Part shown: positions 8,809 through 46,023 of the stretch, piece by piece
How positions within the stretch are numbered: the stretch's first letter is position 1
Layout of the letters: each line of letters opens with the position of its first letter
From: Candidatus Gottesmanbacteria bacterium
GTDB taxonomy: Bacteria > Patescibacteriota > Microgenomatia > JACPZF01
Direction: 5' to 3'
Assembly: GCA_016195615.1 (NCBI GenBank)
Contig: JACPZF010000015.1
Span: forward strand, 1-53,651
DNA: 53,651 nucleotides
Made by a program: the position numbers and the translations under genes
The notes under the pieces: model-generated
The model's database searches: none
What the model was told of the DNA's origin: nothing
The model's input: the letters and a program-made list of their open reading frames with translations, nothing else

Positions 8809-9226
8809 ACCCCCTCTCGTCGTGATAGATGCTGATGCAATCGTAGCCCAAGCATTTCCAAAAGATGCAAATTTTGAGAAAGCAAATAAAATCAGCCAAT
8901 ATTTAACCGCGATAAATGCCAATATGCTTTATCCAGTTACCGCAATTACGGAGGCGGTGACCGTACTACAACGAAAATTAAATAGTTCCGTAACGGCCCT
9001 GGAAACGGCGGCTGTTTTTACCGACCAGAGTCTACAAATCATAGATATTAATAATAAAATCTATAGCCGTGCTGTGAATCATTATTTTCTTCCTTCTACC
9101 AGCAAGAAAAACACTTTATTTGATTGTATTGCGGCCGCAGTGGCTGAAGAATTTAAAGCAGATGCCATTTTCAGTTTTGATAATTTCTATAAGAAAAAAG
9201 GTTTTAAATTGGCAGGCGAATTATGA
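8801..9226 (+). CDS. PIN-domain toxin
   Basis: Starts at ATG 8801 (MNKPPLVVIDADAIVAQ..) and ends ..LFDCIAAAVAEEFKADAIFSFDNFY. The track start 8744 lies inside the antitoxin gene. Confidence 0.7.
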   Translation: MNKPPLVVIDADAIVAQAFPKDANFEKANKISQYLTAINANMLYPVTAITEAVTVLQRKLNSSVTALETAAVFTDQSLQIIDINNKIYSRAVNHYFLPSTSKKNTLFDCIAAAVAEEFKADAIFSFDNFYKKKGFKLAGEL

Positions 9227-15494: not shown

Positions 15495-17220
<1,726 letters not shown>

Positions 17221-22687: not shown

Positions 22688-24883
22688 ATGGATATTTCTG
22701 ATGGCATCAGGCGCTTTTTGGAATACTTAGAGATCGAACGCAACTGTTCAACTTTGACCATTCGCGACTATGAGCACTACCTAAACACCTTTGACGACTG
22801 GACGAGGGCAAATAGCCAGGTAGAAAAGGTCGAAGACATTGATGACGAACACATACGTCAATTTCGGCTGTTTCTGGCTCGTAAAGCTGACAAGCACGGC
22901 CGTTTTCTGAAACGAATTACGCAAAATTATTACGTCATTGCCTTAAGAGCTTTTTTAAGATATTTAATCAAGCAAGACGTCAAAACATTAGCACCGGAAA
23001 AAATTGATTTACCCAAAACCGAAAGCCGGTCGTTAAAATTTTTAAACGAAGAACAGCTTCATCGTTTACTTACGGCAATTGATATTTCCACCAACTGGGG
23101 TTTAAGAGACAGGACAATGGTCGAAATGCTGTTTTCAACGGGCCTGCGGGTTTCAGAACTGTGTAAGCTTAACCGAAACCAGATAAATTTAGATTCTAGG
23201 GAAATTGGGGTTATTGGTAAAGGTCAAAGGGCCCGCGTGGTATTTTTGTCTGATCAGGCGGTGTTTTGGCTAAATAAGTACTTGGCAAAACGAACCGATG
23301 ATTTCTTCCCTTTATTTATAAGGTATAGTCAAAAAGTTGACGAGACTCCCCATGGCGAGAAAATGAGGTTGACGGCCCGAAGCGTGCAAAGAATGCTGGA
23401 AAAATATGTTTTGAAATCCCGCTTGCCAGTTAAGGCAACGCCGCATACATTGAGACATTGTTTAGAACCAAATACCAGAGTGTTTACCAAAGAGGTTGGT
23501 ATGGTATCTGCCAATGATTTATTTTTTTCTGAAAGTGCAAAAATCGAAGGTGTTAATTTAAAAAACGGAAATCAACAATCAGCAGAAATCACCAAAAAAT
23601 TAAGCCATATATCAGATTTGTATTCTGTTTGGGCCGATGGATACGAGATCGTATGTTCCGGAAAGCACTGGCTTTTTACAGTTGGATTGAACGGGCCCGA
23701 GGAAATATTGGTAAATAATTTAAAGTTAGGAGATTATATTTTAGGTGTTAACAAGGTGAATATTGTTGGTAAAACGTTTGTTGACATAGATATGGCAAGG
23801 TTAATTGGATATATTCTCGGCGACGGTGTTATCAGTGAAAAAAGACGCGGCGTTTTTATATTTGATAAAGATATAGATAACTTAAAATTTTATCAAAAGA
23901 TAATTCTCGATAAGCTGCAGGGTTTTATAACAGTTGCAAAAGCTAAAATCAGCAATAGTTATGTGCTTACTTATTATTCATTACCGTTTGTAAAATTTCT
24001 TATATCGCTTGGTTTGGATAAAAAAGCAAAAGAAAAACGGGTACCGTCCAAAATAGTTAATTCTTCAAATCAAGAAATCGCCTCTTTTTTATCAGGTTTT
24101 TATGATGCAGAGGGCAATTCAACTGGTTCTCCTAGATTTTTTTCATCCTCTAAACATCTTCTCAAAGATGTCCAGATGATGTTATTACGGTTAGGGATAG
24201 ATGCTCATTTAATGGAGCGAAAGAGAACTGTCACACTTCCGTCCGGCAGGCCCTATATCCATTTATTCTATACGCTACAAGTCCTGTCTTTTAATGATCA
24301 AAAGAGATTTATTAAACTAATTCCTACATTAAAAATAAAAACTTTAAAGGTATTTGGTAAGCGCGATTTTGATAAATTACCGGTAAACTTGCTATTAAAA
24401 GAAATTTACGAAGATTTGGAAAAAAACGGGAAAAAAGGTTTTCGTTATGCCTTGCAAATAAATGAAGGGATAAAATCTCCCAGATATTTTAAAGAAATGA
24501 CTCCCCTACGCTCAACCGTTGGAAAATTTATCCGCCAGATAGAGAAATTTAAGTTTAATTCAAAAACTTTTGAAAATTTAAAAATGTTTTATAAATCTCA
24601 AAATATGAAATGGTTAGAGGTGAAAAAGATAATAAGGTGGCCATCGCCACGAAACAGCGTGTTTGATTTCACTGTTTCTGAAATTAGTAATTTAATTACA
24701 GACGGAATTGTCAGTCACAATTCGTTTGCGACTGATCTTTTAATGAAAGGCGCTGATTTACGCAGCGTCCAAGAAATGCTAGGACATAAAAACGTTGGCA
24801 CCACCCAAATCTATACCCACGTCACCAATCCGCAGTTAAAAGAGGTTCATAAGAGATTTCACAGCGGGAACAAAAACAGATAA
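22688..24883 (+). CDS. xerC: XerC/XerD-type tyrosine recombinase interrupted by an intein
   Basis: SD aaggag. N-terminal SAM-like domain ([19 protein letters not shown]), catalytic Arg in TGLRVSEL, then HTLRH|intein|[34 protein letters not shown]. The exteins total 310 aa. Confidence 0.9.
23459..24721 (+). mobile_element. 421-aa intein with LAGLIDADG homing endonuclease
   Basis: Starts with Cys (CLEPNTRVF) and has block B GKHWLFT. LAGLIDADG motifs are [11 protein letters not shown] and [11 protein letters not shown]. It ends ..GIVSHN, followed by the +1 Ser of the C-extein. Confidence 0.85.
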
Positions 24884-26617: not shown

Positions 26618-27401
26618 ATCCGATTCCGGATCGGATTATATTAGCGATCCGGTAATTATTCGATAATTAAATGTTTTATTTTAGCTAAATCTCGTTGGTA
26701 ATCTTTTCTGGCCATTACAAATTTTTCGTAATCTTTTATCGAGCGAAATTGATCTAAAATTATTGATGGATAAACAAAGTCTAATTTTTCTAAACCAATA
26801 TAGTGTTTGTACGACGAATATGAATAATCTTCAGGTTTATCCACCAAATATGCGGTCACAGGATTTAAATGAATATATCTTGACAAGTGTAAAATTTGTT
26901 CGTCGGTTTCAACATGAACCGCTTCAAAATTTGGTTCAAAAAGTGGACCAGAAGTTTCGTGTTTAATATTAAAATAATGGGCATAGCTATTGGATATTTT
27001 ATGTAGAAACTTATAAATGCCAAAATCTTCAGTTTGTTGCAGAGTGAAATGAAAATGCGTTGGCATTATACAAAAATTTATTATTTTAACTAAACAGTAA
27101 CTAAAGTTTAATAAGTACTTGCTTCTGCATTTACGATAATTTGAAAACTTCGTCGCTGGTTTACTTTGAAGATAATATCTTGAAGATTCTAAAAAAAGAC
27201 TGGTTTCCTTTTCCCGATTAAATACAGGACGCTTATAGATCGATCGGTTAAAAACGTGATAGTATTCACCGGTAACAAATTGTATTTTTCTCAGACTCAC
27301 ATATCTAACATAACTCGATAAATATGATTCGTCAATATGGCAATATGTAAGTTTTAGAGGAAATACCCGGTTCGCGAAGCTATTCCGATCCCGGATCGGA
27401 A
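26618..27401 (-). mobile_element. IS200/IS605-family element (Y1 transposase flanked by matching subterminal hairpins)
   Basis: Hairpins ATCCGAT-tccgg-ATCGGAT (26618-26636) and TTCCGAT-cccgg-ATCGGAA (27383-27401) bracket the transposase ORF. The 784-nt span fits IS200-type size. Confidence 0.6.
26656..27300 (-). CDS. tnpA: IS200-like / REP-associated (RAYT-like) HUH tyrosine transposase
   Basis: YYHVFNRS.., the HUH motif MPTHFHF and the catalytic-Tyr region LSRYIHLNPV. Probable GTG start at 27300. The track N-terminal extension to 27483 runs through the left-end hairpin. Confidence 0.7.
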   Translation of the reverse strand: MSLRKIQFVTGEYYHVFNRSIYKRPVFNREKETSLFLESSRYYLQSKPATKFSNYRKCRSKYLLNFSYCLVKIINFCIMPTHFHFTLQQTEDFGIYKFLHKISNSYAHYFNIKHETSGPLFEPNFEAVHVETDEQILHLSRYIHLNPVTAYLVDKPEDYSYSSYKHYIGLEKLDFVYPSIILDQFRSIKDYEKFVMARKDYQRDLAKIKHLIIE

Positions 27402-27415
27402 GAAGATACTTAATT

Positions 27416-27718
27416 TTAATTATCAACAAATAATCTTGCATGTACTGGAAAATCAATTCTTGCCTGTTCCTTAAGTTGATCAACTAGATCCCAATTTCTC
27501 TCATTGGCAGCTGCTTTCATTTTGGTTCTCCATCCAGCCCAAGGATTATCATCGGTATAATTATCTATAAGTGCTTGACCATGACCATCGTCTTTATATT
27601 GTTTTCTTAATGATTTCACGAGTCTATTTCTTGCTTCTGGTCCCCCCGGATATCCAATTTCGGAAGCGTTTAAGGCCAAAATTGGCCTGTATTTTTCTTT
27701 AGCTAATTTTTCCGACAT
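27416..27718 (-). CDS. hypothetical 100-aa protein
   Basis: ORF directly downstream of gyrA. Its last codons abut or overlap the IS end, so the C-terminus may be altered by the insertion. Confidence 0.4.
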   Translation of the reverse strand: MSEKLAKEKYRPILALNASEIGYPGGPEARNRLVKSLRKQYKDDGHGQALIDNYTDDNPWAGWRTKMKAAANERNWDLVDQLKEQARIDFPVHARLFVDN

Positions 27719-27748: not shown

Positions 27749-30142
27749 TTACTCTTTCTCCAAACACGCAACGGCGGCGACGAAGTCGGACTTATCCGAT
27801 AACCTCATGAGGATCACACCCTGGGTAGCTCTACCCAGCCGGGGAACAGAATCGATTGGGACTTTAATCGTCTGTTTGCCCGATTTAGTTGCTAAAACAA
27901 GCTGACCAATCGTTTCTGACACCATTTGCGCGGTGACAATCGGGCCGGTTTTGGCAGTGACATTAGCCACTTTTACGCCCTGTCCGCCCCGTCTTTGCTT
28001 GGGAAAGGAAGTAACCGGAGTTCTCTTCCCTATTCCTCTTTCCGATACCACCAGAATATCGCGGAAAAATTTTAATCTTTTATCGCTCGGGTGTTCAATT
28101 TTTTGGGGTACACTTTCCATACCAACCACCAAATCATCCTTTTTCATTCGTACGCCGCGGACGCCGATGGTATCTCTACCGGTGGATCTTACTTCTTTTT
28201 CGGAAAATCGGATGGATTTGCCTTGATGGGTAAAAAGCATGATATCTTCATCGCCGGAGGTTATTTTTGCCCAAACCAGCTCATCGCCGGTTTCTAACTT
28301 TATTGCCGTTAGGCCATTTTTTCGGATATTCTCATATTGACTAAGAGTGGTCTTTTTAACCGTTCCCTGTCTTGTAGTCAGAAAAATACACTCACTATGG
28401 GTTTTATCGGCTTCACTGCTATAGGTTAGTAAGGAATTTACTTTTTCATCCTGGGCGATATTAATAAGATTTACCACCGCCTGTCCCTTACTAACTCTTG
28501 AGGACTCTGGGAGATCCCAAACTCTAAGTTGGTAAACTTTTCCTTTATTGGTAAAGAATAAAATATTATCATGGGTGTTGGCACTGACCAGATGATCGAT
28601 TTCATCTTCCTCCTTTGTAATCATTCCGGTGACTCCTTTTCCTCCCCTGGCTTGGGCGCGGTAGGAGGAGGGCGAAAGGCGTTTGACATAACCAGTTTTG
28701 GTTAAGGTTATAATCATTTTTTCATTCGGGATTAAGTCCTCATCGGAAAACTCGCCGACTTTGCTTTTAATAACTTTAGTTTTTCTATCGTCGCCGTATT
28801 TTTCTTTAAGCTGGAGGATTTCCTCTTTTATTACTTTTAAAACTTTTTCCCCGTGCGAAAGCAGATCCTCAAGATAGGCAATCGTTTCCATCACCATCGC
28901 CAGTTCGTCTTCGATTTTTTGCCGCTCCAGAGCCGCCAGCCTTCTTAGCTGCATATCCAAAATGGCAATCGCTTGGATTTCAGTCAGACCAAACTTGGTC
29001 ATTAAGTTCTTTTTGGCTTCGTCGGCGTCTTGGGATTTTTTAATCGTTTGAATAACCTCGTCGATGTGGTCAACCGCTATTTTTAAACCCTCCAAAATAT
29101 GAGCTCGAGCCTTGGCCTGTTTGAGTTCGAACTCGCTTCTTTTAGTAACCACTCTTTGGCGGTGCCTGATGTATTCTTCCAGGATGGTTTTGAGAGTTAA
29201 GGTTTGCGGCGTTCCATCGACGAGAGCTACCATGTTTACGGGAAAGACGCTTTGCAGACTGGTATGCTTATATAAATTATTTAATACCTGTTTGGGCCGA
29301 GCATCTCTTTTAAGTTCAATTACAACTCTGATGCCGTGACGGTCGGATTCATCGCGAAGATCAGATATGCCTTCTAACTTTTTATCCTTAACTAAATCGG
29401 CAATTCTTTCGACCATCTGGGCCTTATTCACCTGATAAGGAAGCTCGGTAATAATAATGGCGGATTTGTTGCCACCCGCTATGTCTTCAATTTCAGCTCT
29501 ACCCCTCATGACCACTTTGCCCTTACCCGTCGAATAGGCATTGGCGATTTCAGCTTTATCAAAAATAATGCCGGCCGTGGGAAAATCCGGGCCGTGGACA
29601 TACTCCATGAGTTCCTCGGTGGTAACAGAAGATAGATTTTTGTTATCTACCTTCAATTCGTGTTCAACTTTATCGATTATGAACACAATAGCATCAATAA
29701 GTTCTGCCAGATTATGGGGCGGAATCTTAGTTGCCATGCCCACGGCGATACCTTCGGAACCTATGAGAAGCAAATTAGGAAGCTTGGCCGGCAGATAGAC
29801 TGGTTCTTTTAAGGTGTTATCAAAATTAGGAGTAAAATCAACCGTTTCTTTTTCCAGATCGAATAACATTTCCGCGGCAATTAACGCGTCATAAACCGGA
29901 ATATCGCCATGGGGGTGGTATTTACCTAAAACTTCACCGACAATTTTAGCGCTTTTGGAAAATTTAGAAGTATGATGCAGGCCCATTTCGTGCATGGCAT
30001 AGAGAATGCGTCTGTGAACTGGTTTTAAACCGTCCTTAACGTCTGGCAAAGCCCGAGCCACAATAACGCTCATCGCATAGTCCAAATAGGACTTTTGCAT
30101 TTCTTCGGTAATTTCTACTGGTAGAAGTTTGCCAATGTTCAT
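27749..30142 (-). CDS. gyrA: DNA gyrase subunit A (ORF lacks the catalytic-tyrosine block)
   Basis: [60 protein letters not shown] and C-terminal beta-pinwheel repeats are present. The segment VRMAQ..GNFGS..AAMRYTE is absent (see findings). Confidence 0.85.
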
Positions 30143-30178
30143 AAATCTAATTTAAAAGTTAAAGGTCAAAAGTCAAAA

Positions 30179-32023
30179 TCATTTTCCAATGACGGCGATG
30201 ACAAAAGGCGCGATTAAAAGAGCAACGATTTGCACGATTTTCATCATCGGATTAAGAGCCGGACCGGCAGTATCTTTTAACGGGTCGCCAACGGTATCAC
30301 CGACGACTGCTGCTTTGTGAGTATCGCTGCCTTTGCCGCCATAGTTGCCATCCTCGATGTATTTTTTGGCGTTATCCCAGGCTCCTCCTGCCGTACACAT
30401 ATACAAAGCCAGAGCTAATCCTGAAACCACGACGCCGGCGAGGAATCCTCCCAAGCTTTCCGCACCTAAAAATCCGACCAAAACTGGGGCGCCGACGACA
30501 ATTATAGCTGGAATAATAAGTTCTCTTTGGGCGGCTGCGGTAACGATTGCGACCGCTTTAGAATAATCAGGCAGAGTTTTGCCTTCCATAATACCTTTAA
30601 TTTCTTTAAATTGACGTCTCACTTCTTGGACTACTTCAAAAGCAGCCTTGCCCACGGAGCCAATAAGCCTCGAGCCAAATAAATATGGTAGACCAGTTCC
30701 AATTAAAAGGCCGGCAAAAACTTTAGGATTGGCGATGTCAATTGATTTTAAACCCGTGACTTCAAAATAAGTGGCAAAGAGCGAACTAGCAGCCACGGCG
30801 GCGCTACCAACAGCAAATCCTTTGGTTAACGCCTTCGTAGTATTGCCGACAGCGTCCAGGCTTTCCGTAACCGCTGCCGCCTTGCCAGGGACGTTGGCCA
30901 TTTGAACCATGCCTTGGGCGTTATCCGAAATCGGACCGAAAGTATCTAGAGACATAATAATACCTGTCGTTGCCAGCATACCCATACCGGCAAGGGAAAT
31001 TCCATAAAAACCCAAAAACCAATAACCGACAAAGATCGTCGCGGTAACAATTAGGATATTAAAAAAGGTTGCTTCCATGCCAATAGCAATGCCGCTAATG
31101 ATCGTAGTTCCCGCCCCGGTTTTAGACGCGGTGGCAATTTGCATCACGGGCTTTTCTCCGGGTCCGGTGTAATACTTGGTAAGAAATAATATTACCAGCA
31201 TGGAAATAATACCAGCCACAGCGGCAAACCCGGCTCGTGGTTCGTTTAAAAGAAAAATCGCCAGTGCCATAAAAATTACCATCGCCGAAATGGCCGAAAT
31301 AATAAAGCCGCGAATTAAAGGTAAAAGAGGATTCTCTTTTTCGTTTTTTGCTTTAACAAAAAAGGTTCCGAGTATGGAAGTTACAATAGCTGCAGCCCGT
31401 GCTAAAAGGGGAAAAACTACGCCTTTTAAGCCAAACATCGCGCCTCCTAGGATCATGGAAGCTACAACCCGCATAAAAAGGGTTAATAATGCCGCCCCAA
31501 AACCATAACCGACCAAAACGTCAGTCGCGTGCTTCGCGACTAGATCAGCCCCTTGCGCAATATAGGAAAAATAAGCCCACATATAAATAAGGGAAACGCC
31601 GAAAAGTCCAAGACCGACCACAAGCATGCCGTTTACGGTTCCGGCGCCAAAGGCAATTTTAAGAGCAGGATTTAAACCATATTGAGCGTTATTGGCAGTT
31701 CGCACATTGGCGCGGACAGCAATCCACATGCCAAAAAAGCCGATCAAAGCACTACCTACTCCTCCGAGGACAAAAGCAACTGCTGTACCAGTTCCAAGGG
31801 TAAAATTTATTAAAACGCTTAAAACCAGCATGATAGGAATCACGACTCGAAATTGTTTTTTAATATAAGTCATCGCGCCCTCGCGGATTGCTTTGGCAAT
31901 CGCTTGCAATTTCGGACTGCCCTCTTCTTCTTTAAGTACTTGTCTTGTTAAATAATAACCATAGCCGATGGCTAAAAGAGCTGTTAATGGAGCTACAAAT
32001 AGTGCTATAAGTTGAATATCCAT
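30179..32023 (-). CDS. hppA: membrane-bound proton/sodium-translocating pyrophosphatase (ORF lacks the central catalytic acidic-motif block)
   Basis: Polytopic. The conserved C-terminal motifs GPISDNAQG, DAVGNTTKA, GGAWDNAKKY and GDTVGDPLKDT are present. The GGG.YTKAADVGADLVGK..DNVGDNVGD block is absent (see findings). Confidence 0.8.
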   Translation of the reverse strand: MDIQLIALFVAPLTALLAIGYGYYLTRQVLKEEEGSPKLQAIAKAIREGAMTYIKKQFRVVIPIMLVLSVLINFTLGTGTAVAFVLGGVGSALIGFFGMWIAVRANVRTANNAQYGLNPALKIAFGAGTVNGMLVVGLGLFGVSLIYMWAYFSYIAQGADLVAKHATDVLVGYGFGAALLTLFMRVVASMILGGAMFGLKGVVFPLLARAAAIVTSILGTFFVKAKNEKENPLLPLIRGFIISAISAMVIFMALAIFLLNEPRAGFAAVAGIISMLVILFLTKYYTGPGEKPVMQIATASKTGAGTTIISGIAIGMEATFFNILIVTATIFVGYWFLGFYGISLAGMGMLATTGIIMSLDTFGPISDNAQGMVQMANVPGKAAAVTESLDAVGNTTKALTKGFAVGSAAVAASSLFATYFEVTGLKSIDIANPKVFAGLLIGTGLPYLFGSRLIGSVGKAAFEVVQEVRRQFKEIKGIMEGKTLPDYSKAVAIVTAAAQRELIIPAIIVVGAPVLVGFLGAESLGGFLAGVVVSGLALALYMCTAGGAWDNAKKYIEDGNYGGKGSDTHKAAVVGDTVGDPLKDTAGPALNPMMKIVQIVALLIAPFVIAVIGK

Positions 32024-32032
32024 ATATCCTTT

Positions 32033-34040
<2,008 letters not shown>

Positions 34041-34827: not shown

Positions 34828-36549
34828 GTGAAAAACGACAATAATGATCTTGCTAGAGTGCTTTTGTCGCAAAAGCTTCTTTCCCCCGAGCAAGCGGATT
34901 TAGTTCGTCTGGAAAGTGTTAATAAAGGCCAAAGAATTGAAGAGGTCATCAGGGCCCATAATTTTGTCGCGGAAGAACAACTAGCCAAAGCTAAAGCTGA
35001 GATTTTAGGCGTTTCCTACGTTTCTTTGGCGGCCAAAGGCATTTCCCCTGATATTTTAAATTACATTCCCGAACCAGTTGCCAGACGCTACATGGTATTG
35101 CCCTTTTCTTTTGACCAAAAAACGAGAATTCTTTCGGTAGCGATGAAAGATCCGGTGGACATTTCCGCCATTGAATTTCTAGAAAGCAAATCCGGTCTAG
35201 CCATCGAACCGTATCTGGCCCTAGAAAGCGAGCTTTCGCAAAAGATCGAAGAAGAATATTCCCAAAGTCTAACTTCGGAAGTCACGCAGGCATTAAATGA
35301 ATCAACTATTTCTACTAAAACCGAAGAAGATACCTCTAAATCCCTAGCCCAGACGATCACCGAAGCACCGATTGCCAAAATCGTTTCCACGATATTAGAT
35401 TACGCCGTCAAATCGCGCGCGTCAGATGTTCACATCGAACCCCAAGAAGAAAGAACCAGGGTGCGCTATCGTATCGACGGCATTTTGCACGAAAGATTGG
35501 CCTTGCCGAAAAAGGTCCACGACGCGGTCAGTTCCCGCATCAAAATTCTCGCCGACATGAAAATCGACGAGAGAAGAATTCCCCAGGATGGCCGTTTTTC
35601 CTTCTCCAGCGGTGATCAGGAGGTGGATTTGCGCGTTTCCTCGCTTCCTACCGTTTATGGTGAAAAAATTGTCATGCGGCTTCTGAAAAAAAGCGGCGGC
35701 GTTCCAACCTTGCCTGAACTTGGCTTAAGAGGAACGGCGCTAAAAAACCTGGAAAACGCCACACTTCGGCCCCACGGTATTATTTTAATTACCGGACCAA
35801 CCGGATCGGGAAAAACTACGACTCTCTACTCGATTTTAACCAAATTAAATACGGCGAAAGTCAACATCGTGACTTTGGAGGATCCGGTTGAATATCAAAT
35901 CGGTGGGGTTAATCAGGTCCAAATAAATCCGGCTGCCGGGTTAACTTTTGCTTCTGGGCTGCGTTCCTTTTTGCGTCAAGACCCTAACATTATTATGGTC
36001 GGTGAGATTCGGGACACAGAAACAACTGATTTGGCTATTCAGGCGGCCTTAACAGGGCACTTAGTATTTTCTACTCTTCATACCAACAACGCTTCCGGAG
36101 CTTTGCCCAGGCTTTTGGATATGCATGCAGAGCCTTATTTAGTCGCCTCGGCTCTTAACGCCGTGGTGGGTCAACGCGTAGTCCGACGGATTTGTAATTT
36201 TTGTAAAGAAGAATACGAACCGCCGGAGCCAATTGTCAGCGATCTAAAATTAGTCCTTGGTAAATTATTTCCTGACTCAGCGCAGCAAAAAACTAGCAAA
36301 CTTGTTCTCTATAAAGGTAAAGGCTGCGATGAATGCAGCGCTACCGGGTATCAAGGCCGAATTGGAGTTTATGAAGTATTGCCGATAGACGAAAAAGTGG
36401 GCAGATTGGTATTAGAGCACGCTTCGACCGGCGACATTGAAGCCAAAGCGATCGAGGAGGGTATGATTACGATGAAACAAGATGGGTATTTAAAAATTAT
36501 TGAAGGCATTACGACCGTGGAAGAAGTACTGCGGGTGGCGCAGGATTAA
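34828..36549 (+). CDS. pilB: type IV pilus assembly ATPase PilB (GspE family)
   Basis: N-terminal MshEN-like domain, Walker A GPTGSGKTTT, LEDPVEY, Walker B MVGEIRD, His box GHLVFSTLHTN and a tetracysteine CNFC..CDEC. GTG start. Confidence 0.9.
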   Translation: MKNDNNDLARVLLSQKLLSPEQADLVRLESVNKGQRIEEVIRAHNFVAEEQLAKAKAEILGVSYVSLAAKGISPDILNYIPEPVARRYMVLPFSFDQKTRILSVAMKDPVDISAIEFLESKSGLAIEPYLALESELSQKIEEEYSQSLTSEVTQALNESTISTKTEEDTSKSLAQTITEAPIAKIVSTILDYAVKSRASDVHIEPQEERTRVRYRIDGILHERLALPKKVHDAVSSRIKILADMKIDERRIPQDGRFSFSSGDQEVDLRVSSLPTVYGEKIVMRLLKKSGGVPTLPELGLRGTALKNLENATLRPHGIILITGPTGSGKTTTLYSILTKLNTAKVNIVTLEDPVEYQIGGVNQVQINPAAGLTFASGLRSFLRQDPNIIMVGEIRDTETTDLAIQAALTGHLVFSTLHTNNASGALPRLLDMHAEPYLVASALNAVVGQRVVRRICNFCKEEYEPPEPIVSDLKLVLGKLFPDSAQQKTSKLVLYKGKGCDECSATGYQGRIGVYEVLPIDEKVGRLVLEHASTGDIEAKAIEEGMITMKQDGYLKIIEGITTVEEVLRVAQD

Positions 36550-36590
36550 AAAAATTTTAAGTTTTTAATTCTTAATTTTTAATAAAATCT

Positions 36591-37652
36591 ATGGAACTTG
36601 CAACTTTATTACAAACCATCCTAACTGCGCGGGGTTCGGATCTACATTTATTGGCTAACCTCTTGCCGATGATTAGAGTTGATGGCGATCTAAGCCCCAT
36701 TGCGGGCCAAAACATGATCAGTGCCGACGATGTTAAGACGCTTTTGTTTTCCATTATGAGCGAGGAGCAAAAAGAATTATTTTTAGCTAATAAAGAGATT
36801 GATTTCTCCTATGCTTTTTCCGATGCGGCGCGGTTTCGCGTCAATGTTTATTGCCAAAAAGGGACTTTTGGAGCCGCTTTCCGTCTAATTCCCATGAAGA
36901 TACCATCGCTTACTGATATTAATTTGCCAGATATTACCCATGTCTTTGCCAGCTTAAAGCAGGGATTTATTCTCGTTACCGGGCCGACAGGACACGGCAA
37001 ATCTACTACTCTCGCCGCGATTATTAACGAAATCAACCGAACTAGAAGAACGCATATTGTAACAATTGAAGACCCGATTGAATATATTTTTAAACCCGAG
37101 TTAAGTATTATTTCTCAGCGCGAAATGCATCTCGATACCCATTCTTGGGATCTGGCGCTAAGGAGTGTTTTACGTGAAGATCCTGATGTGGTACTGGTTG
37201 GCGAGATGAGAGATCTCGAAACCATTCGCGCGGCGATGACGGTTGCCGAAACCGGCCATTTAGTTTTAGCAAGCCTGCATACTAACAGTGCGAGTCAGAC
37301 CATCGATCGTATCGTGGGGGTATTTCCAGAAGAGGAACAACAGCAAGTCAGATTGCAACTAGCGAGTACGTTGGAAGGAATAATTTCGCAAAGACTTATT
37401 CCTTTAGTAAGCGGCGGTCGCATCCCGGCGGTGGAAATCTTAACCGCTACGGCAGCGATTAAAACCGTCATTCGCGAGGGGAAAAATCATCTCATCGACA
37501 ACATCATTCAGACTTCGGCGGAATCGGGGATGATTTCTCTAGACAAATCGCTGGCGAGATTAGTACTTAACAATAAAGTTAGTAAAGATGTCGCCATGGC
37601 TTATTCTCTGCACCCCGAAGATTTTGTCAGCATCTTAAGAGAAAAGAAATAA
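36591..37652 (+). CDS. pilT: twitching-motility retraction ATPase PilT
   Basis: GSDLHL, GPTGHGKSTT, IEDPIEY, LVGEMRD and GHLVLASLHTN. Length is 353 aa. Confidence 0.9.
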   Translation: MELATLLQTILTARGSDLHLLANLLPMIRVDGDLSPIAGQNMISADDVKTLLFSIMSEEQKELFLANKEIDFSYAFSDAARFRVNVYCQKGTFGAAFRLIPMKIPSLTDINLPDITHVFASLKQGFILVTGPTGHGKSTTLAAIINEINRTRRTHIVTIEDPIEYIFKPELSIISQREMHLDTHSWDLALRSVLREDPDVVLVGEMRDLETIRAAMTVAETGHLVLASLHTNSASQTIDRIVGVFPEEEQQQVRLQLASTLEGIISQRLIPLVSGGRIPAVEILTATAAIKTVIREGKNHLIDNIIQTSAESGMISLDKSLARLVLNNKVSKDVAMAYSLHPEDFVSILREKK

Positions 37653-37655
37653 ATT

Positions 37656-38861
37656 ATGCCCATTTATCGATACAAAGTACGAGACCACGGGAGTAAAACG
37701 TTGCAAGGAAACATCGAAGCTAAAGACCCTCGGGTGGCGGCGGTGCTACTTCGCGAGCGGGGGCTTTTTATCATTGATATCGGTCTGCCGACAAAATTTA
37801 GCGTCGAAACCGTCAAGAGATATTTAACCAAAGTTTCCTATGGTGATATTGCGACTATGACGAGGCAGTTTGCGACGCTTATTACTTCCGGACTGCCGAT
37901 AATTGACGCGTTGTCTCTGCTTGGCGACCAAATGCAAAACCCCATACTTTCCGCTACGGTCGAAGGCATTAAACACGAAGTTGAAGGCGGATCGAATTTA
38001 GCAACGGCCTTTGAAAAACATCCCAATATTTTTAACCGTTTGTACATCTCACTTTTAAGAACCGGTGAGACTTCGGGAATGTTGGATAAAGTCTTAAGTA
38101 AATTAGCTGACAACATGGAAAAACAACGCGAATTTAATTCCAAAGTTAAAAGCGCTTTGGTCTACCCCATCATTGTTATCGGCGGCATGGGCTTAGTCGC
38201 TTTAATTATGATGATTTTCGTCATTCCCAAACTCACGGCTTTATACAAGGATTTAAACGTCGTTTTGCCCCTGCCGACGCGGATTTTAATCGCTGTCTCC
38301 AATTTTATGATTGGTTTTTGGTGGTTAATGATTTTAGCCATTTTCGGTTTAGGATTTCTTTATTCGGCTTGGCGCAAAACCGATCAGGGGCGCCAAATCA
38401 CCGATAGGCTTAAATTAAAAGTCCCGATCCTGGGACCTATTACGCAAAAAGTAAATCTGGCCCAGATTTGCCGTACCCTTGGCCTTCTCGTTGGCGCCGG
38501 CATTCCCATTATCGACAGCATTAATATTGTGGCTACGGCAACCGATAATGTTTTAATGGAAAAAGCTTTAAATTTTGCTTCCAAACACGTGGAAAAAGGA
38601 TTCCCTTTGGCGCAATCAATTGAACAAAAAGAGGTCTTTCCGCCGATTGTGGCCCAAATGATCAGGGTGGGCGAAGAAACCGGTAAATTAGACGATTCTC
38701 TTCTTAAACTTTCCTACTATTTTGAGAGCGAAAGCGAAGAGTTAATCAAGGGCTTGACAACTGCATTGGAGCCACTTATCATGATTGTATTGGGAGTGGG
38801 AGTTGGCTTTTTAGTCATCTCCATCATTCTTCCCATTTATAAAATTACCAGCGCGATATAA
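37656..38861 (+). CDS. pilC: type IV pilus platform protein PilC (GspF family)
   Basis: Two GspF repeats (..FATLITSGLPIIDAL.. and ..LGLLVGAGIPIIDSI..) and three TM segments. Length is 401 aa. Confidence 0.9.
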   Translation: MPIYRYKVRDHGSKTLQGNIEAKDPRVAAVLLRERGLFIIDIGLPTKFSVETVKRYLTKVSYGDIATMTRQFATLITSGLPIIDALSLLGDQMQNPILSATVEGIKHEVEGGSNLATAFEKHPNIFNRLYISLLRTGETSGMLDKVLSKLADNMEKQREFNSKVKSALVYPIIVIGGMGLVALIMMIFVIPKLTALYKDLNVVLPLPTRILIAVSNFMIGFWWLMILAIFGLGFLYSAWRKTDQGRQITDRLKLKVPILGPITQKVNLAQICRTLGLLVGAGIPIIDSINIVATATDNVLMEKALNFASKHVEKGFPLAQSIEQKEVFPPIVAQMIRVGEETGKLDDSLLKLSYYFESESEELIKGLTTALEPLIMIVLGVGVGFLVISIILPIYKITSAI

Positions 38862-38875
38862 GGAGGTTTAACAAT

Positions 38876-39451
38876 ATGAGGAAAGCCATCCAAAAAGGTT
38901 TTACGATGATCGAGCTTTTGGTGGTTATTGCGGTTATCGGCGTTATGGCCACCGCCGTTCTTTCAGCTATCAATCCTCTGGAACAAATCAATAAAGGCAA
39001 TGACACCGGTTTAAGATCAGATGCGGAGCAAGTCCTGGGTGCAGTAGATCGGTATTATTCATCATTAGCCTATTTCCCTTGGCAAAACGGGGCCAACGAT
39101 AACTTTGTCAACGTAGCCTGGCAAAACGTTATCGATCTAAATACTAATCGTTCGGCTTTAACCAATATGGAAAATACCCAGGAAATTAAACACGGATTTA
39201 CTCTCCGGCTGACAGATGTCAAGCGAACGCCGATTTATTTAATGTATGACAACAGTTCGGCTTCACCAACGATGTATGCTTGTTTTGTGCCCAAGTCAAA
39301 CTCGTTTTTGACAGAGGCATTTAATCGCTGCAAAGGTACAGCAGTTACGGCTGGGACGCCATTTGGAGCAACCGGCGAAGCATGTGCGGGGACTGTTGGA
39401 GCAAGTACAACTTGCAATACGACCAAAAACTGCTACGTTTGTCTGCCGTAA
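38876..39451 (+). CDS. type IV pilin (candidate major pilin)
   Basis: Strong SD aaggagg and the prepilin motif KG|FTMIELLVVIAVIGVMA. First pilin gene after pilBTC, with a Cys-rich C-terminus. Confidence 0.85.
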   Translation: MRKAIQKGFTMIELLVVIAVIGVMATAVLSAINPLEQINKGNDTGLRSDAEQVLGAVDRYYSSLAYFPWQNGANDNFVNVAWQNVIDLNTNRSALTNMENTQEIKHGFTLRLTDVKRTPIYLMYDNSSASPTMYACFVPKSNSFLTEAFNRCKGTAVTAGTPFGATGEACAGTVGASTTCNTTKNCYVCLP

Positions 39452-40437
39452 AAGGTTGGGCGATACAGAGCGCCGCGGCTTGTACCTAATTTTATAAGGA
39501 AACCTTCCTTAAGCAATTGACTTACATCATAATGAAGCGTGCTTTTAGGAATTTTTTGAAAACGGCGTTTGAGAAAATCAAAAGAAACAATTTGGTGATT
39601 TCTGACGATCTCTAAAATTTCCCGTCGCCTGGGAAGAAGCCAGTCCTCTACGGTTTCGGTTTTGGCATTTTTAAGTTTTTCCATGGTCTTATCAGTTTGG
39701 AATTGTAATCCCTCTAAAAAAAATTCCACAAATTCGGTGACGTCTTTTTTATTTAGAGCCAAAAGATCATAGTAAGTTTGCCTTTTTGATTCTAAATATT
39801 CTTCTAAAGATACTAGTCCGCGAAAACCAAACCCGGAATTTTTTAAAATTAAAGTGGCCAAAAGTCTTCCGGTCCGACCGTTTCCGTCTAAAAAGGGATG
39901 AATTTTTTCAAAGGCAAAATGGTAAGTGGCGGCGTTCACCGGACCCTCATCTTCTGAAGAATTTATTTTTGCTACCAAGGTTTTGATTAAGGAAGGTATC
40001 TTTGACGCCGGAGGTGTAAGATAAACTGCAACTTGGGCCTGACTAAAAATCGCGGAAGGTTCGCGGCGCCACTCTCCCGCTTCGGGGGAAAGATTGGCCA
40101 AAACATACCCATGCAGTTTAAGAATTGTCGAATAAGACAATTTTTTTGGTGCCTTGGAATAGACCCAAGTAAGGCCTTTCAGAACGTTGGCCACTTCAAT
40201 TTTAGCGATATTTTTGGCGTTCCTTTGTAAAGAGATAAAACTTAAGTCTTCCAGACGCAATTTGTTGCCCTCAATCCGGGCAGAAAAAAGCGAGCTTTTA
40301 AGAAGTGACTCGCGCCGGAGATTCTCTTCAAGATGAGGCGATGACGGCAGCAAAGCGATAACCCTAGCCATAACTTTCAGCTCTTCCATGGCTTTGGCGA
40401 TGACCTTTGTGCGGCGGTAGTAGTAATCCAATTTCAT
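39433..40437 (-). CDS. Fic-family protein (AMPylase-type) with C-terminal wHTH-like region
   Basis: Fic motif HPFLDGNGRTGRLL. Antisense to the pilus genes, with a convergent 19-nt overlap on the pilin gene 3' end. Confidence 0.85.
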   Translation of the reverse strand: MKLDYYYRRTKVIAKAMEELKVMARVIALLPSSPHLEENLRRESLLKSSLFSARIEGNKLRLEDLSFISLQRNAKNIAKIEVANVLKGLTWVYSKAPKKLSYSTILKLHGYVLANLSPEAGEWRREPSAIFSQAQVAVYLTPPASKIPSLIKTLVAKINSSEDEGPVNAATYHFAFEKIHPFLDGNGRTGRLLATLILKNSGFGFRGLVSLEEYLESKRQTYYDLLALNKKDVTEFVEFFLEGLQFQTDKTMEKLKNAKTETVEDWLLPRRREILEIVRNHQIVSFDFLKRRFQKIPKSTLHYDVSQLLKEGFLIKLGTSRGALYRPTFYGRQT

Positions 40438-40520
40438 ATTAAATAATCTTAGAAGATATTAGAAGTTATTGCAAGATATTGAAGGATTTTTAGAGTCGTC
40501 TCTGTTATAATTCTTTCGTT

Positions 40521-41966
40521 ATGCTCTATCGTTTAGTTGATTTGGTTTTGGCCAAAAAAAATCTGGCGTTTTTTTTAATTCTTTTCATGCTGGGTTTGTT
40601 TGTGGTCTTCCCGACTTACGACCCGGATTTGGGCTGGCATATCGCTTACGGCAATTATTTTTGGCAAAACCATAAACTATTAACAAGCGATATTTTTTCC
40701 TGGACCCTAGCTGATTTTAAGTGGTTTAGCATTTCCTGGCCTTATGATCTTTTAGTAAGTTTGGTTTTTCCTAAAGGAGAATTTTTGGCCTTGTCATTAA
40801 TCGCGGTGGCAGTAATTCTTCTGACTTTTTGCTTTCTCGTCAAACCTTTTAAACTTTCCTTTTTTTGGTTAGTAATGGCATCGTTAGTATTTATTTTTTT
40901 TGTCCAACCACTAGCCAGCCCGGGTTTTAGAGTTCAGCTTTTTGAACTGCTTTTTTTAGCCGTAGCGACAAGTCTTATTTGGTCGTATGAAAAAGGTCAA
41001 AAAGTAGTAGTTTGGTACTTTCCTCTTTTAATGATCGGTTGGATCAATCTTCATGGCTCATTTATCATGGGACTCTTTTTAATCGGTTCTTACGTAGTTG
41101 TTAAAAACTTAAGTTCAACGTTAAACGCGCAGCAAAAAATAGTTTTAAATTTAATTTTACTACTTACTATTCTAGCTGTTTTTATCAATCCTTACGGTCT
41201 GGCGCTTTTTAAACAAATTGTAAATTATGCCCCCATTTTGCGAACTACCGGCGTTAATGAATGGCAGCCGGAAAGCATTTTTTCCGATAAGTGGCTGATG
41301 CTTTTAGTCTGGACGGCCCTCCTCATCGTTATCGTTTTAAAAAACCGCCGCGATCATTTTGGTTTGTATCAAGCTGTTATCGTTTTGCTATTTGCTTTTT
41401 TAGGTTTTAATTCGAGAAGAATGATCACGCCGTATGTGGTTGTTTCTTTACCCCTGGTATTAAATTTTATTCATGGTCTAAATTTTAAAATAAGCAAAAA
41501 AGCAAATTTGATGGCTTTAGTAATTATCATGAGTGCTATCGTCAATGGACTTTTTAATCGACTTCCCTCTTTGCATTTTTTAAAGACCAATCTTAATGAA
41601 TACTGCCAAATTGGACTGCATTGTTCTCCGGAAGCGATGAGCTTTATTAAAAAAAATCCTTTACCGAAAAAAAGTCTAACTTTTTATAACTGGGGCGGTT
41701 ATTTAATTTGGCAAACGGAAAGTCGCGTTTTTGTCGACGGCCGGATGGACCAATGGGAAAAAGAGGGTTTTAGTGCTTTTAGCGATCACGAAAAGATTTT
41801 GCAAAAAGACGATTTAGATCTTTTTAATAAATATAATTTCGACGCCGTCTATATCCCACCTACTTTTCGTTTGGCAGCGTATCTAGAAAAACAAACAGAG
41901 CAAGGGAAATGGGCTAAGGTTTTTGGCGATGATCGCGCGGTCATTTTTGAGAAAAAAAAGTTATGA
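40521..41966 (+). CDS. polytopic membrane protein, GT-C-like glycosyltransferase candidate
   Basis: About 11 TM segments, an acidic motif in the first extracytoplasmic loop (YDPDLGWH) and a soluble C-terminal domain (YNWGGYLIW..FVDGRMDQW). The family assignment is tentative. Confidence 0.4.
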   Translation: MLYRLVDLVLAKKNLAFFLILFMLGLFVVFPTYDPDLGWHIAYGNYFWQNHKLLTSDIFSWTLADFKWFSISWPYDLLVSLVFPKGEFLALSLIAVAVILLTFCFLVKPFKLSFFWLVMASLVFIFFVQPLASPGFRVQLFELLFLAVATSLIWSYEKGQKVVVWYFPLLMIGWINLHGSFIMGLFLIGSYVVVKNLSSTLNAQQKIVLNLILLLTILAVFINPYGLALFKQIVNYAPILRTTGVNEWQPESIFSDKWLMLLVWTALLIVIVLKNRRDHFGLYQAVIVLLFAFLGFNSRRMITPYVVVSLPLVLNFIHGLNFKISKKANLMALVIIMSAIVNGLFNRLPSLHFLKTNLNEYCQIGLHCSPEAMSFIKKNPLPKKSLTFYNWGGYLIWQTESRVFVDGRMDQWEKEGFSAFSDHEKILQKDDLDLFNKYNFDAVYIPPTFRLAAYLEKQTEQGKWAKVFGDDRAVIFEKKKL

Positions 41967-43519
41967 AAAAAACTATTTTACTAGCGATCGCGGTTTACTT
42001 AATAAGCAGTATCGGCCTACTTTATGGTTATCTCCACACGCCTTCCGGGATGATTTTTTTAGGCGGGCATTTGCCCAATTCCGGTGAAATCCTAAATATG
42101 GTTTTACCGCAGCTTCGGGAAGGACATTTGTTAATTAAAAACCTCTTTACCTCTGAACCGCAGCCCAGAATTTTTTTTGCTCCTTCTTATTTACCAATGG
42201 CGTTACTGGGTCAAATTTTGCCTGTCAATAATTTTCTCCTTGTACAGTTAGGACGTTTTTTTTACACGATCTTATTTTTTATTATTGCTTTTAAATTTTT
42301 TAAACTCCTTAAACTTAAAAATATATTTTGGGCGTTTTTGCTTTTAGGTTTTTCCTCGGGGTTTGGCCTTTTTTTAAAATGGGGAATTCCTAATTCGGCG
42401 GATTTATGGATTCCTGAGATCAACACTTTTCATAGTCTTCTTTTTTCTCCCAATATTATTTTTAGCCAAATACTGATGATGTTGTCGCTTATGACTTTTT
42501 TTAAAGGGTATACCTTACAAAAATGGAAATACTTTTTGCTTTCAGGAGCGTTTGCTACTCTTTTAGCGTTTGAACACCAGTTTGACGCCGTAACCGTACT
42601 CCTTACTATTTTGATATTTCTTCTTTTGACCGAAACAAAATTTAAAATTTGGCTTAAAAAAATATTCTCGCTTTGGTCGATTTTTTTCGGACCAATACTC
42701 GTCTTTGGGCTTTATTATTTTCTGATTAAACAAAACTGGTCATCATTGATTTGGACTAACCAAAACCATCTTTACTCCCCACCTCTACTCTCCTACATTT
42801 CGGGATTTGGTCTAATTGGCATCGGTGCTTTTTTGGCAATTATTAAATCTAAGAACAAAAAAAATTCTTCTTATCATCTTATTTTGTCCTGGCTGATAGC
42901 CGTAATAATTGTTATTTATAGTCCTTTGCCTTTTCAAAGAAGATTTGGCGAAGGAATGCATATTCCTCTGGTCATACTAAGTTCTTACTATCTTTGGGAA
43001 TTAGTCCAAAAGTTAAAAAAAATTCCTTTTCGGCTTGGCCTTTTTTTCCTGCTGCTATTTTCAGCAGCAACCAATTTTTATTTGCTTTATCTTGATATCA
43101 AAGCCTACCAACTAAGTCCCAATGAATCACCATTTTATATTTATCAGGAAGACCTAACGGCTCTTTCGTGGTTAAGAAATAACTCCAGCGACAAAGATGT
43201 TATTTTAGCCGATGGGCTCTACAGTCCTCTGATTCCGGGATTAATAGGACGTACGGTTTATTTCGGCCATTCGGTCGGGACTGCACTGACGATTGATCCG
43301 GAAAAAAAGACCGAGCAGGCGAAGAATTTTTTCTTTTATGATTCGGACGAAAAACGTCAGAAATTTTTGGAAAATAATAAAATAACTTTTTTCTTTTTGG
43401 GGAAAAAGGCAGCCGCCGCGGAAGATTTTTCCCTCTGGGAGGGGAAAGATTATTTTAGAAAAGTTTTCGAAAGACAAGACGTTAAAGTTTTTAAGGTAAA
43501 AAATTCTTTGATAATTTGA
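41963..43519 (+). CDS. polytopic membrane protein, ArnT/PMT-like (GT-C) candidate
   Basis: About 12 TM segments plus a C-terminal soluble domain, coupled to the preceding gene by a 4-nt overlap. The family assignment is tentative. Confidence 0.35.
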   Translation: MKKTILLAIAVYLISSIGLLYGYLHTPSGMIFLGGHLPNSGEILNMVLPQLREGHLLIKNLFTSEPQPRIFFAPSYLPMALLGQILPVNNFLLVQLGRFFYTILFFIIAFKFFKLLKLKNIFWAFLLLGFSSGFGLFLKWGIPNSADLWIPEINTFHSLLFSPNIIFSQILMMLSLMTFFKGYTLQKWKYFLLSGAFATLLAFEHQFDAVTVLLTILIFLLLTETKFKIWLKKIFSLWSIFFGPILVFGLYYFLIKQNWSSLIWTNQNHLYSPPLLSYISGFGLIGIGAFLAIIKSKNKKNSSYHLILSWLIAVIIVIYSPLPFQRRFGEGMHIPLVILSSYYLWELVQKLKKIPFRLGLFFLLLFSAATNFYLLYLDIKAYQLSPNESPFYIYQEDLTALSWLRNNSSDKDVILADGLYSPLIPGLIGRTVYFGHSVGTALTIDPEKKTEQAKNFFFYDSDEKRQKFLENNKITFFFLGKKAAAAEDFSLWEGKDYFRKVFERQDVKVFKVKNSLII

Positions 43520-43557
43520 TTGAAAAAATACATCTTTAATGCTAGTATTACTATAGC

Positions 43558-44073
43558 ATGCGTAAATCTGCCTTTACCCTTATCGAACTAATGATTGCCG
43601 TAACCATTGTTGCCATAATTGCTGGAATTTTTGCCTTAAATGTGTCTGGAAATTTAGCTAAGGCCCGAGATGCAAAAAGGAAAAGTGATTTAAGAGCTCT
43701 TAAAACTTCCCTAGATCTTTATTACAATGTTAACAACCTCTACCCTCCTTCGGAATCGAGTTGGCCGCCTTTTTCCGGGGATAATCGCATTAAAGGCTGT
43801 GGGGCTTTAACTACACCTCTTAATTGCAATTGGGGAACGCCATGGGTTCAGGATGGAGTAACCTATATGGGAGTCTTACCTAAAGATCCTCAATCGCAAT
43901 GGTCCTACTATTATCTACGTGCGCCGCAAGGCCGCTTAAGTTATATTATGGTGGCTAAATTGGAAAGAGGTTTTGATCCGGATACTGCCGCGTCGCAAAG
44001 CAATTGTCAGGATACGACTTATGGTTTTGTCTATTCTGACCCATCGTGGTATGTGGTGTGTGATGCGAGGTAG
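43558..44073 (+). CDS. prepilin-type N-terminal cleavage/methylation domain protein (pilin)
   Basis: MRKSA|FTLIELMIAVTIVAIIAG. Extended -10 TGcTAGTAT lies 9 nt upstream of the ATG. Confidence 0.8.
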   Translation: MRKSAFTLIELMIAVTIVAIIAGIFALNVSGNLAKARDAKRKSDLRALKTSLDLYYNVNNLYPPSESSWPPFSGDNRIKGCGALTTPLNCNWGTPWVQDGVTYMGVLPKDPQSQWSYYYLRAPQGRLSYIMVAKLERGFDPDTAASQSNCQDTTYGFVYSDPSWYVVCDAR

Positions 44074-44078
44074 ATAAT

Positions 44079-44537
44079 ATGAAAAGTAAGGCATTTTCGT
44101 TAATTGAACTGTTGGTAGTTATCTCAATTATGGCTATCTTAGGTAGTTTAGCTCTCAGTGCTTTTTCTACCGCCAGAAAAGAAGCACGCGATACGCAAAG
44201 AAAAAATGAATTAACCCAGTATAAAACGGCTCTCGAGTCCTATTATGTTTCCAACAGTACCTACCCTGTTTATTCCGGCAGTCCGGCGATTTCCAATCAG
44301 TTTCAAGGTATTTTTGATCAAAACAGCTCTTTTATTCAAATCTATATGGCCGGAACGACTTTGCAGGGGGTAAACGCCGCTGATAATTACGTTTATTACT
44401 ATTTAAGCGACGGTGTCAAATATAAACTTTGGGGCAAAATTGAATTAAACGATTATTTTGAAATTTGCTCCAATGGTAAAAGCGGAGCGTTAAAATCGAT
44501 AAATTTAAATCTATCCAGTGTTGCTTGCGACTTATGA
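44079..44537 (+). CDS. pilin-like protein
   Basis: MKSKA|FSLIELLVVISIMAILG. Confidence 0.8.
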   Translation: MKSKAFSLIELLVVISIMAILGSLALSAFSTARKEARDTQRKNELTQYKTALESYYVSNSTYPVYSGSPAISNQFQGIFDQNSSFIQIYMAGTTLQGVNAADNYVYYYLSDGVKYKLWGKIELNDYFEICSNGKSGALKSINLNLSSVACDL

Positions 44538-44998
44538 TAAGAAAAAAACGGGGATATACGCTTTTAGAAATTTTAATGGTGATGGGAATAATTGGCATTC
44601 TTCTTGCAGTATCTGCATCGGCTTTTTTGTCAGCTCGATTAACGGCCAGAGACGCCCGAAGAAAAACTGATTTGGAGCAGATAAGAGGTGCAATAGAAAC
44701 ATATAAGGCAGACAAAAATGTCTATCCCGGATCTCAAAGCGTGCCTACTCAAAGCAGTGGCAATGTCAGTTCTCTCGCCACCTTTCTGGTTAGCGGTTCT
44801 AATCAGTATATTTCCGCCATACCCTCGGATCCGATTTCAACCATGCAATATTATTACATTCCTACAGCCACCGGCTATTATTTATGCGCCTCACTGGAAG
44901 GCCTCCCGAATACTGCCTCGACTAATTGCGGCAGCGGTGATTGTGGTGTCAGCAGCAATTTGGCGAAAGTCTGCAATTATGAAGTCAAAAATCCCTAA
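44525..44998 (+). CDS. pilin-like protein
   Basis: ..KKRG|YTLLEILMVMGIIGILLA. Confidence 0.8.
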   Translation: MRLMIRKKRGYTLLEILMVMGIIGILLAVSASAFLSARLTARDARRKTDLEQIRGAIETYKADKNVYPGSQSVPTQSSGNVSSLATFLVSGSNQYISAIPSDPISTMQYYYIPTATGYYLCASLEGLPNTASTNCGSGDCGVSSNLAKVCNYEVKNP

Positions 44999-45584
44999 GT
45001 TTTGGCATTTTGGATTTACCTTAATCGAATTATTAGTGGTTTTTTCTTTGGCGGTAATTTTTGCCGTCGTTACGATTCCGTCTTATATTAATTTTAATAG
45101 AGAACAAGAGGTTAAGCAGTCAGCTTTGTTTCTTAAATCGCAAATAAGAAAGGCGCAAAATAGCAGTTTATCCGGTGAAAAATCTACTACCAGTTGTACT
45201 CAAAGCGATGTTTTGACGGGTTTTTTTGTCGAGCTGGCAGTAAACCAAAAAAGCTTCGTCTATGGCGGCCGCTGCGGCGATATTGATTTTAACAAAACCA
45301 CGCTTAAATTGCCTTCCTCCAATACTAAAATATCGGGTTTTTACGACGCTACATCTTTGCCTACGCCTCCCTGCAGTGCTTTTACTCCCGGCAATGGTTC
45401 TCTACGATTAAATTACCGCCCCGTCGCTAAAGGGATTGATTTTTACGATTGGAATAGCGCCATCGCTAGCGGCTCCAATCTAAATTACGGTAAAATCGCC
45501 ATTAAGATATCCGATGCCAACGCCAACGATTATTTTATTATCATTAGCTCTGGTGGAGAAATTTATGACACGGCAAGCTGTTAA
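44979..45584 (+). CDS. minor pilin-like protein
   Basis: Starts at ATG 44979 (MKSKIPKFWHFG|FTLIELLVVFSLAVIF). The track start 44718 is an out-of-frame overlap with the preceding pilin gene. Confidence 0.7.
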   Translation: MKSKIPKFWHFGFTLIELLVVFSLAVIFAVVTIPSYINFNREQEVKQSALFLKSQIRKAQNSSLSGEKSTTSCTQSDVLTGFFVELAVNQKSFVYGGRCGDIDFNKTTLKLPSSNTKISGFYDATSLPTPPCSAFTPGNGSLRLNYRPVAKGIDFYDWNSAIASGSNLNYGKIAIKISDANANDYFIIISSGGEIYDTASC

Positions 45585-46020
45585 AAAGAAACCTGGTCAA
45601 AGCATGATCGAAACCCTAATCGCTTTGGGAATTGGGGTTTTAATTATTGTGGCGCTGGTCCAAAGCATTGTCACGAGCATTAAAAATTCCCAGTTTGCCA
45701 AAAATCAGACGCTCGCGACCAGATTTAGCCAAGAAGGAATAGAAATTATAAGAAGTGTGCGCGACAGACTAGGCTGGCCAAGCTTTTATAATAGTTATAA
45801 CACTAAGACCAAATGTTTAGGCTCCAACGATTATACAACTTGGGGCGATACTCTTCCCTGTACGATAAATACCGGCGACATCTTTTCCCGACAGGCAAGT
45901 TTTTCTGATCCCAGCGGATCGGGCAATCAAATCTTAGTCAATGTTACTACTGCTTGGACCGATACGACAGGAAGTCACAAATCCGAACAACAGACGTACT
46001 TAACAAAATGGCAGCAATAA
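45565..46020 (+). CDS. minor pilin-like protein (PilV-like)
   Basis: ATG 45565 follows SD ggtggag (MTRQAVKKKPGQS|MIETLIALGIGVLII). Confidence 0.7.
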   Translation: MTRQAVKKKPGQSMIETLIALGIGVLIIVALVQSIVTSIKNSQFAKNQTLATRFSQEGIEIIRSVRDRLGWPSFYNSYNTKTKCLGSNDYTTWGDTLPCTINTGDIFSRQASFSDPSGSGNQILVNVTTAWTDTTGSHKSEQQTYLTKWQQ

Positions 46021-46023
46021 AAT

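Follow-up and report, generated by a model that had tools for sequence, protein, structure and literature searches.

Two in-frame gaps in the adjacent gyrA and membrane pyrophosphatase genes of a Candidatus Gottesmanbacteria contig are probably local assembly errors

Results

The analyzed window is the whole contig of a draft metagenome-assembled genome (MAG) of Candidatus Gottesmanbacteria, 53,651 nt long, with 40.2% G+C and not a single N. Three genes of interest follow each other on its reverse strand in the order gyrB-PPase-gyrA that is also found in relatives: an intact gyrB (32073..34037), which supplies the gyrase partner, an ORF of 614 aa for a membrane-bound H+/Na+ pyrophosphatase (PPase; 30179..32023, MBI3384742.1) immediately upstream of gyrA, and a gyrA ORF of 797 aa (27749..30142) whose product is identical to MBI3384741.1. 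The gyrA ORF is complete except for a block of 40 codons, and the PPase ORF lacks a block of 60 codons. The closest relative locus (L001/L006, contig CAYJSC010000044.1 of GCA_964372475.1; 82% nucleotide identity) has the same gene order. The two junctions delimit a stretch of 1,587 nt (29882..31468, reverse strand) that runs from the 3' part of the PPase gene across a 36-nt spacer through gyrA codons 1–87, and that matches L001 at 82% identity, as do its flanks.

Several other features were noted along the contig. An IS200/IS605-type Y1 transposase-like ORF (275 aa, TTG start; 26656..27718, reverse strand) and an overlapping ORF of 100 aa separate gyrA from the next conserved gene, forming an insert of approximately 1.3 kb that L001 does not have. 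Tgt (15811..17220, forward strand) is 469 aa long against a model of 368 positions and gives a split match, i.e., it carries roughly 100 aa of insertions. A XerC/XerD-like tyrosine recombinase (22688..24883, forward strand) holds a class-1 intein of 419 aa (23465..24721, CLEPNT...IVSHN|S) with a LAGLIDADG endonuclease domain, inserted within the catalytic HTLRH|SFAT motif, and the orthologue in a second relative (L002, 17703-18641) is intein-free. A type IV pilus-like cluster (34828..46638) encodes several small proteins carrying N-terminal methylation motifs besides a PilB-like ATPase, PilT and a PilC-like platform protein, and it includes two large ORFs (40521..43519) that had no Pfam match. 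Two PIN-domain ORFs and one Fic/DOC-family ORF are scattered at 4253..4645 (reverse), 8744..9226 (forward) and 39433..40437 (reverse), and could possibly belong to toxin-antitoxin or addiction modules.

The gyrA product is a GyrA by all family-level measures. It scored 1024.3 bits against NF004043 (cut-off 902) and 969.2 bits against TIGR01063 (cut-off 877), each in two stretches, and matched PF00521 with E = 1.9e-129, while the parC models remained under their own cut-offs. The C-terminal six-bladed beta-pinwheel is present (six PF03989 stretches), with the GyrA box QARGGKG in blade 1, the feature that sets GyrA apart from ParC. A normal Microgenomates GyrA (P0002, GCA_964372475.1) shares with it 90% identity over the aligned residues, the gyrB-PPase-gyrA order, the six-bladed C-terminal domain, the GyrA box and the equivalog-level score; unlike that protein, the one in the window is without 40 residues that include Arg121 and Tyr122.

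The absence of this block had been proposed in a preliminary description of the sequence, as a loss of about 40 codons around the active-site tyrosine, and relatives' alignments, structures and HMMs agree that exactly 40 codons are gone. In the alignment with the 10 closest relatives (812–872 aa, 70–90% identical), exactly 40 columns were gapped in the window GyrA only, and these read VRLAQxFSMRYxLVxGQGNFGSxDGDxxAAMRYTExxLSx. All of the further gyrA genes taken from related reference genomes (22 of 22) carry the block, and the window shows the same 40-column gap against them. A spacing of about 40 residues between the two conserved blocks that abut here had been stated for E. coli and B. subtilis GyrA, and the sequence search against solved structures showed it for E. 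coli: residues 1–87 of the query pair with E. coli GyrA up to approximately residue 89, and the pairing resumes from query residue 86/88 at E. coli residue 128/130. Alignment to curated profiles had been named as a route by which the gap might be disproved, and there too the tyrosine block was absent: the matches to PF00521, NF004043 and TIGR01063 are each split, with the second stretch starting at residue 88 and model position 123-124. From the alignment and the known E. coli sequence, we take the gap to correspond to V90-K129 of E. coli GyrA, including Arg121 and the catalytic Tyr122. The position of these two residues, in the AAMRYTE motif of the winged-helix domain, fell into a gap in every alignment, and the absent segment also takes in the wing of that domain and the last part of its recognition helix. 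Judged from its sequence, the window GyrA as written cannot cleave DNA, because the 40 residues with Arg121 and Tyr122 are missing.

At the DNA level, the break is clean. Compared with L001, the gyrA gene is exactly 120 nt short, and these 120 nt are absent relative to all relatives; the junction TTA|ATT (29879..29884, reverse strand; Leu87|Ile88) lies at 29882|29881, and the junction word in the contig is GGTTTATGACGCGTTAATTGCCGCGGAAATG. The upstream flank ends in ...GACGCGTTA, where a VRLAQ-type codon series would continue the full-length gene. The junction had initially been placed at ttaatt|gccgcg and called in frame; the frame holds, and the position is one codon off, within the ambiguity of the alignment.

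The second gap, in the neighboring PPase gene, was not part of the preliminary description, which covered gyrA only. It is likewise in frame and measures exactly 60 codons (180 nt) against L001, with the junction CGG|GTTG at 31465..31469 (reverse strand) showing a microhomology of 4 nt, as GTTG stands at both ends of the missing 180-nt stretch in L001. The junction word in the contig is CCCTTTTTATGCGGGTTGTAGCTTCCATGATCC; the flank ends in ...TTTATGCGG, and the full-length continuation would be GTTGGnGGnGGn. Orthologues in the same gyrB-PPase-gyrA arrangement have 674 and 681 aa vs. 614 aa here. The PF03030 match splits in two, residue 186 pairing with profile position 224, and the alignment with the Vigna PPase 4A01 skips from approximately residue 245 to 305. 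Comparison with L001, L002 and 4A01 places the GGG(I/V)(Y/F)-type and DNVGDNVGD motifs within the 60 missing residues, and most of one transmembrane helix is lost with them. The acidic motifs in this stretch bind PPi and Mg in the Vigna radiata H+-PPase structure. The protein passes the family score (PF03030, 654 bits; NF001960, 644.7 bits vs. a cut-off of 546), and the cytoplasmic catalytic motifs expected of the family are not there, both of them lying inside the gap.

The missing blocks were not found elsewhere on the contig. Searches of the whole window for the GyrA and PPase blocks with tblastn and blastn, and for the GyrA motif in all six frames, returned chance-level matches only, in agreement with the earlier statement that no GNFGS- or AMRYTE-like string occurs in any frame. 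The suggested check for a second gyrA or parC, made on the window, revealed none, as the GyrA relatives match one locus only. Pfam scans of the other contig ORFs of at least 120 aa detected no comparable internal gaps, and tblastn of the genes syntenic with L001 and L002 detected none beyond those in gyrA and the PPase gene.

What remains of both genes bears the mark of purifying selection. The dN/dS ratios vs. L001 (Nei-Gojobori; dS of about 1) were 0.058 for gyrA, 0.030 for the PPase gene and 0.024 for gyrB, and in gyrA and the PPase gene they were low both upstream and downstream of each junction; the rest of GyrA is thus indeed very well conserved, as had been noted at first sight. Ratios this low imply that both genes were functional and strongly constrained across essentially the whole divergence from L001, and hence that the gaps are either unreal or extremely recent.

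Both gaps are, in addition, unique to this record. The best 120 GyrA homologues among 5.8 billion clustered proteins are 812–872 aa long, with the window's own record as the sole exception. A degenerate DNA pattern for the gyrA junction ('HPHGD...YD..' directly before '[ILV][AS]xE'), which matched the window as a positive control, had 0 matches in 241 million JGI metagenome records and in 0 of 86 fetched loci. Exact DNA words of the strain had 0 matches in the GTDB representative genomes and the JGI metagenomes, i.e., the species is absent from both. Exact look-up of the truncated GyrA and PPase in other assemblies, where the same-strain contigs are short, found neither. No same-strain GyrA fragment that spans the gap was among the protein matches listed, which comprised targets no longer than about 1.75 query lengths and N-terminal fragments outside the size ranges of approximately 152–190 aa and 440–590 aa.

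The strain itself was located by exact look-ups of PilT and holB in the Logan assemblies of two read sets, SRR12113414 and SRR12113409. A contig of 1.9 kb from the former (L004) is 100% identical to window positions 35974-37888, and one of 1.1 kb from the latter (L005), also 100% identical, covers holB and the beginning of gyrB; both end short of the two junctions, and the 6.5-kb contig of a related species ends within gyrB. As these Logan contigs reach only 1.1–1.9 kb, the 53.6-kb scaffold bridges many points at which a conservative assembler stopped. The organism name, together with the protein accession (MBI33...) and the numbering of the runs (SRR121134xx), leads us to infer that the MAG belongs to PRJNA640378, a project that includes several Gottesmanbacteria MAGs with 40–41% G+C and 10–17x coverage. 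In that study, each sample was assembled with MEGAHIT and the IDBA-UD scaffolder was run on the contigs, and correction of local errors was not reported (PMC7906910). The contig thus probably comes from a MEGAHIT pipeline with IDBA-UD scaffolding and without local-error curation.

Discussion

The gaps in gyrA and the PPase gene exist in the published consensus, are found in this record only, and each of them removes indispensable catalytic residues from a gene whose remainder is under purifying selection. We consider it likely that they are two local assembly or scaffolding errors and not features of the genome. A living lineage with both null alleles is unlikely because two adjacent, otherwise intact genes would each have lost their catalytic core, and the second gap, in the PPase gene, makes the problem read as one of local sequence reconstruction and not as one odd gene. 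In the real genome, both proteins would then be normal, GyrA with about 837 aa and its catalytic tyrosine in place and the pyrophosphatase with about 674 aa, and the published consensus would skip 120 and 180 nt at two points 1.6 kb apart. The joins would have been made by the assembler or scaffolder, which would have linked contig ends in a probably uncurated, low-coverage MAG; IDBA-UD scaffolding of MEGAHIT contigs may have fused the flanks without Ns, the 1,587-nt stretch between the junctions may have been assembled separately and then joined at either end, and neither junction may have any supporting read.

Errors of this kind have been described before. Chen et al. 2020 reported that consensus stretches backed by no read are common in such assemblies, counted 13 local assembly errors in one CPR genome of 1.13 Mb, and suspected IDBA-UD assemblies to be especially prone to them (PMC7111523). 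At that rate, approximately 0.6 errors would be expected per 53 kb, so two on this contig are unremarkable. The present case resembles theirs in that a short wrong consensus would lie inside an otherwise correct scaffold, and in that it concerns a CPR genome that probably comes, uncurated, from a short-read assembler with IDBA-UD involved (PMC7111523). It differs in that their errors were defined by zero read support, whereas the gaps seen here are known from the consensus, and in that in-frame lengths in multiples of 60 nt are no hallmark described there. Several points speak against an artefact: both gaps are in frame, which for random lengths would occur by chance in 1 of 9 cases, their lengths of 120 and 180 nt divide evenly by 60 nt, a regularity that would not be expected from a generic assembly error, and the clean junctions with the 4-nt microhomology in the PPase gene would also suit a real slippage deletion. 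Nevertheless, a real deletion explains the multiples of 60 nt and the in-frame coincidences equally little, and the balance of the hypotheses is therefore not shifted by them.

As a trigger for assembly errors, k-mers shared with co-occurring relatives inside the gyrA block were considered and found to lack specific support. Among the 22 related gyrA genes, the missing block has a mean pairwise nucleotide identity of 0.72 vs. 0.64 gene-wide, and identical runs of at least 17 nt concentrate at residues 60–79 and 160–179, so that the block is no hotspot of identical runs.

The strongest alternative, which we nevertheless regard as unlikely, is that a groundwater haplotype carries two recent in-frame deletions that inactivated GyrA and the PPase, in a defective or decaying lineage or as relic DNA, and that the assembler reported this haplotype. 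Clean, in-frame junctions with microhomologies of 4 nt (GTTG) in the PPase gene and 0–3 nt in gyrA are what slippage deletions would give, a de Bruijn contig normally requires the junction k-mers to be present in the reads, and low dN/dS ratios are compatible with a very recent event. On the other side, gyrase is an essential enzyme for which the window offers no second copy, it would be very improbable for adjacent genes to suffer one null deletion each, independently, while everything else stayed undamaged, and a comparable junction occurred in no other assembly or metagenome record that was searched. With the strain present in two read sets, the truncated proteins might have turned up in other assemblies, and they did not, a weak argument given how short those contigs are. 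It seems improbable that both gaps are real on a single haplotype, that is, that there is a Gottesmanbacteria lineage with a tyrosine-less GyrA and a PPase without its catalytic loop. In one version of this reading, a defective subpopulation would be kept beside wild-type cells; a more exotic one would invoke a regulated, codon-exact excision of catalytic cassettes from two neighboring genes. Should the junctions be real, a CPR lineage whose gyrase and PPase alleles are both catalytically dead would be a genuine curiosity.

A further explanation, and in our view a very improbable one, is that inteins, fixed or polymorphic, occupy the tyrosine site of GyrA and the catalytic loop of the PPase, and that the assembler skipped them together with extein codons. 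The missing GyrA block contains the classical mycobacterial intein insertion point beside the tyrosine, so that the gap lies where an intein would be looked for, and the organism does have a LAGLIDADG-endonuclease intein, in its XerC-like recombinase; that intein, however, came through the assembly intact. We know of no intein site in the missing PPase block. Neither junction retains intein residues, Pfam finds no intein domain in the gyrA ORF, and the model for intein-containing GyrA (NF038098) scores 828 against a cut-off of 1850, matching the extein parts only. A bubble caused by the presence or absence of an intein would break at the intein boundary, from which the edges of the gap are 34 and 6 codons away, and the best 120 GyrA homologues show no intein-sized extra length. 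The case thus shares with mycobacterial intein-containing GyrA the affected catalytic-tyrosine block and the classical insertion point, and differs from it in that sequence is lost here, not gained, and in that intein motifs are absent. No intein or intron remnant was seen at the junction with Pfam or NCBIfam.

Damage to the file after assembly, either by the loss of 60-column lines or because masked or N stretches were taken out before submission, is hardly credible either. In its favor are the two gap lengths, both exact multiples of 60 nt, the gyrA junction (29880|29881) at 498 x 60 and the window without a single N. Against it stands the PPase junction (31464-31469) at 524 x 60 + 24 to 29, which is no line boundary of the same 60-column file, and taking out N-runs would give no reason for lengths in multiples of 60. 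That whole lines of a 60-column FASTA or GenBank file were lost is ruled out, as the two junctions are not congruent modulo 60. Among the three options initially listed for the gyrA gap, then, an assembly artefact is the one that we favor, a recent deletion is less likely, and an intervening element finds no support.

The biological significance of the two gaps is probably nil; they are no biological novelty, and their value lies in the warning that they give about database quality. The records 'DNA gyrase subunit A' (MBI3384741.1) and 'sodium/proton-translocating pyrophosphatase' (MBI3384742.1) look complete, yet each is without its catalytic core. Since the truncated proteins pass the NCBI HMM cut-offs (1024 vs. 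902 for GyrA; 645 vs. 546 for the PPase), the annotation raised no flag, and in-frame gaps slip past checks for frameshifts and pseudogenes. Such records can find their way into alignments, active-site surveys and training sets and contaminate them; a check for gaps in profiles, i.e., for an HMM match that is split with model positions missing, would detect them. Chen et al. 2020 have warned that, through errors left uncorrected, databases acquire wrong protein sequences (PMC7111523).

A separate point of record quality concerns the closest relative, L001, which is deposited as 'uncultured Gammaproteobacteria bacterium'. This name, which several other Patescibacteria loci in that TPA MAG series also bear, looks like a wrong organism label.
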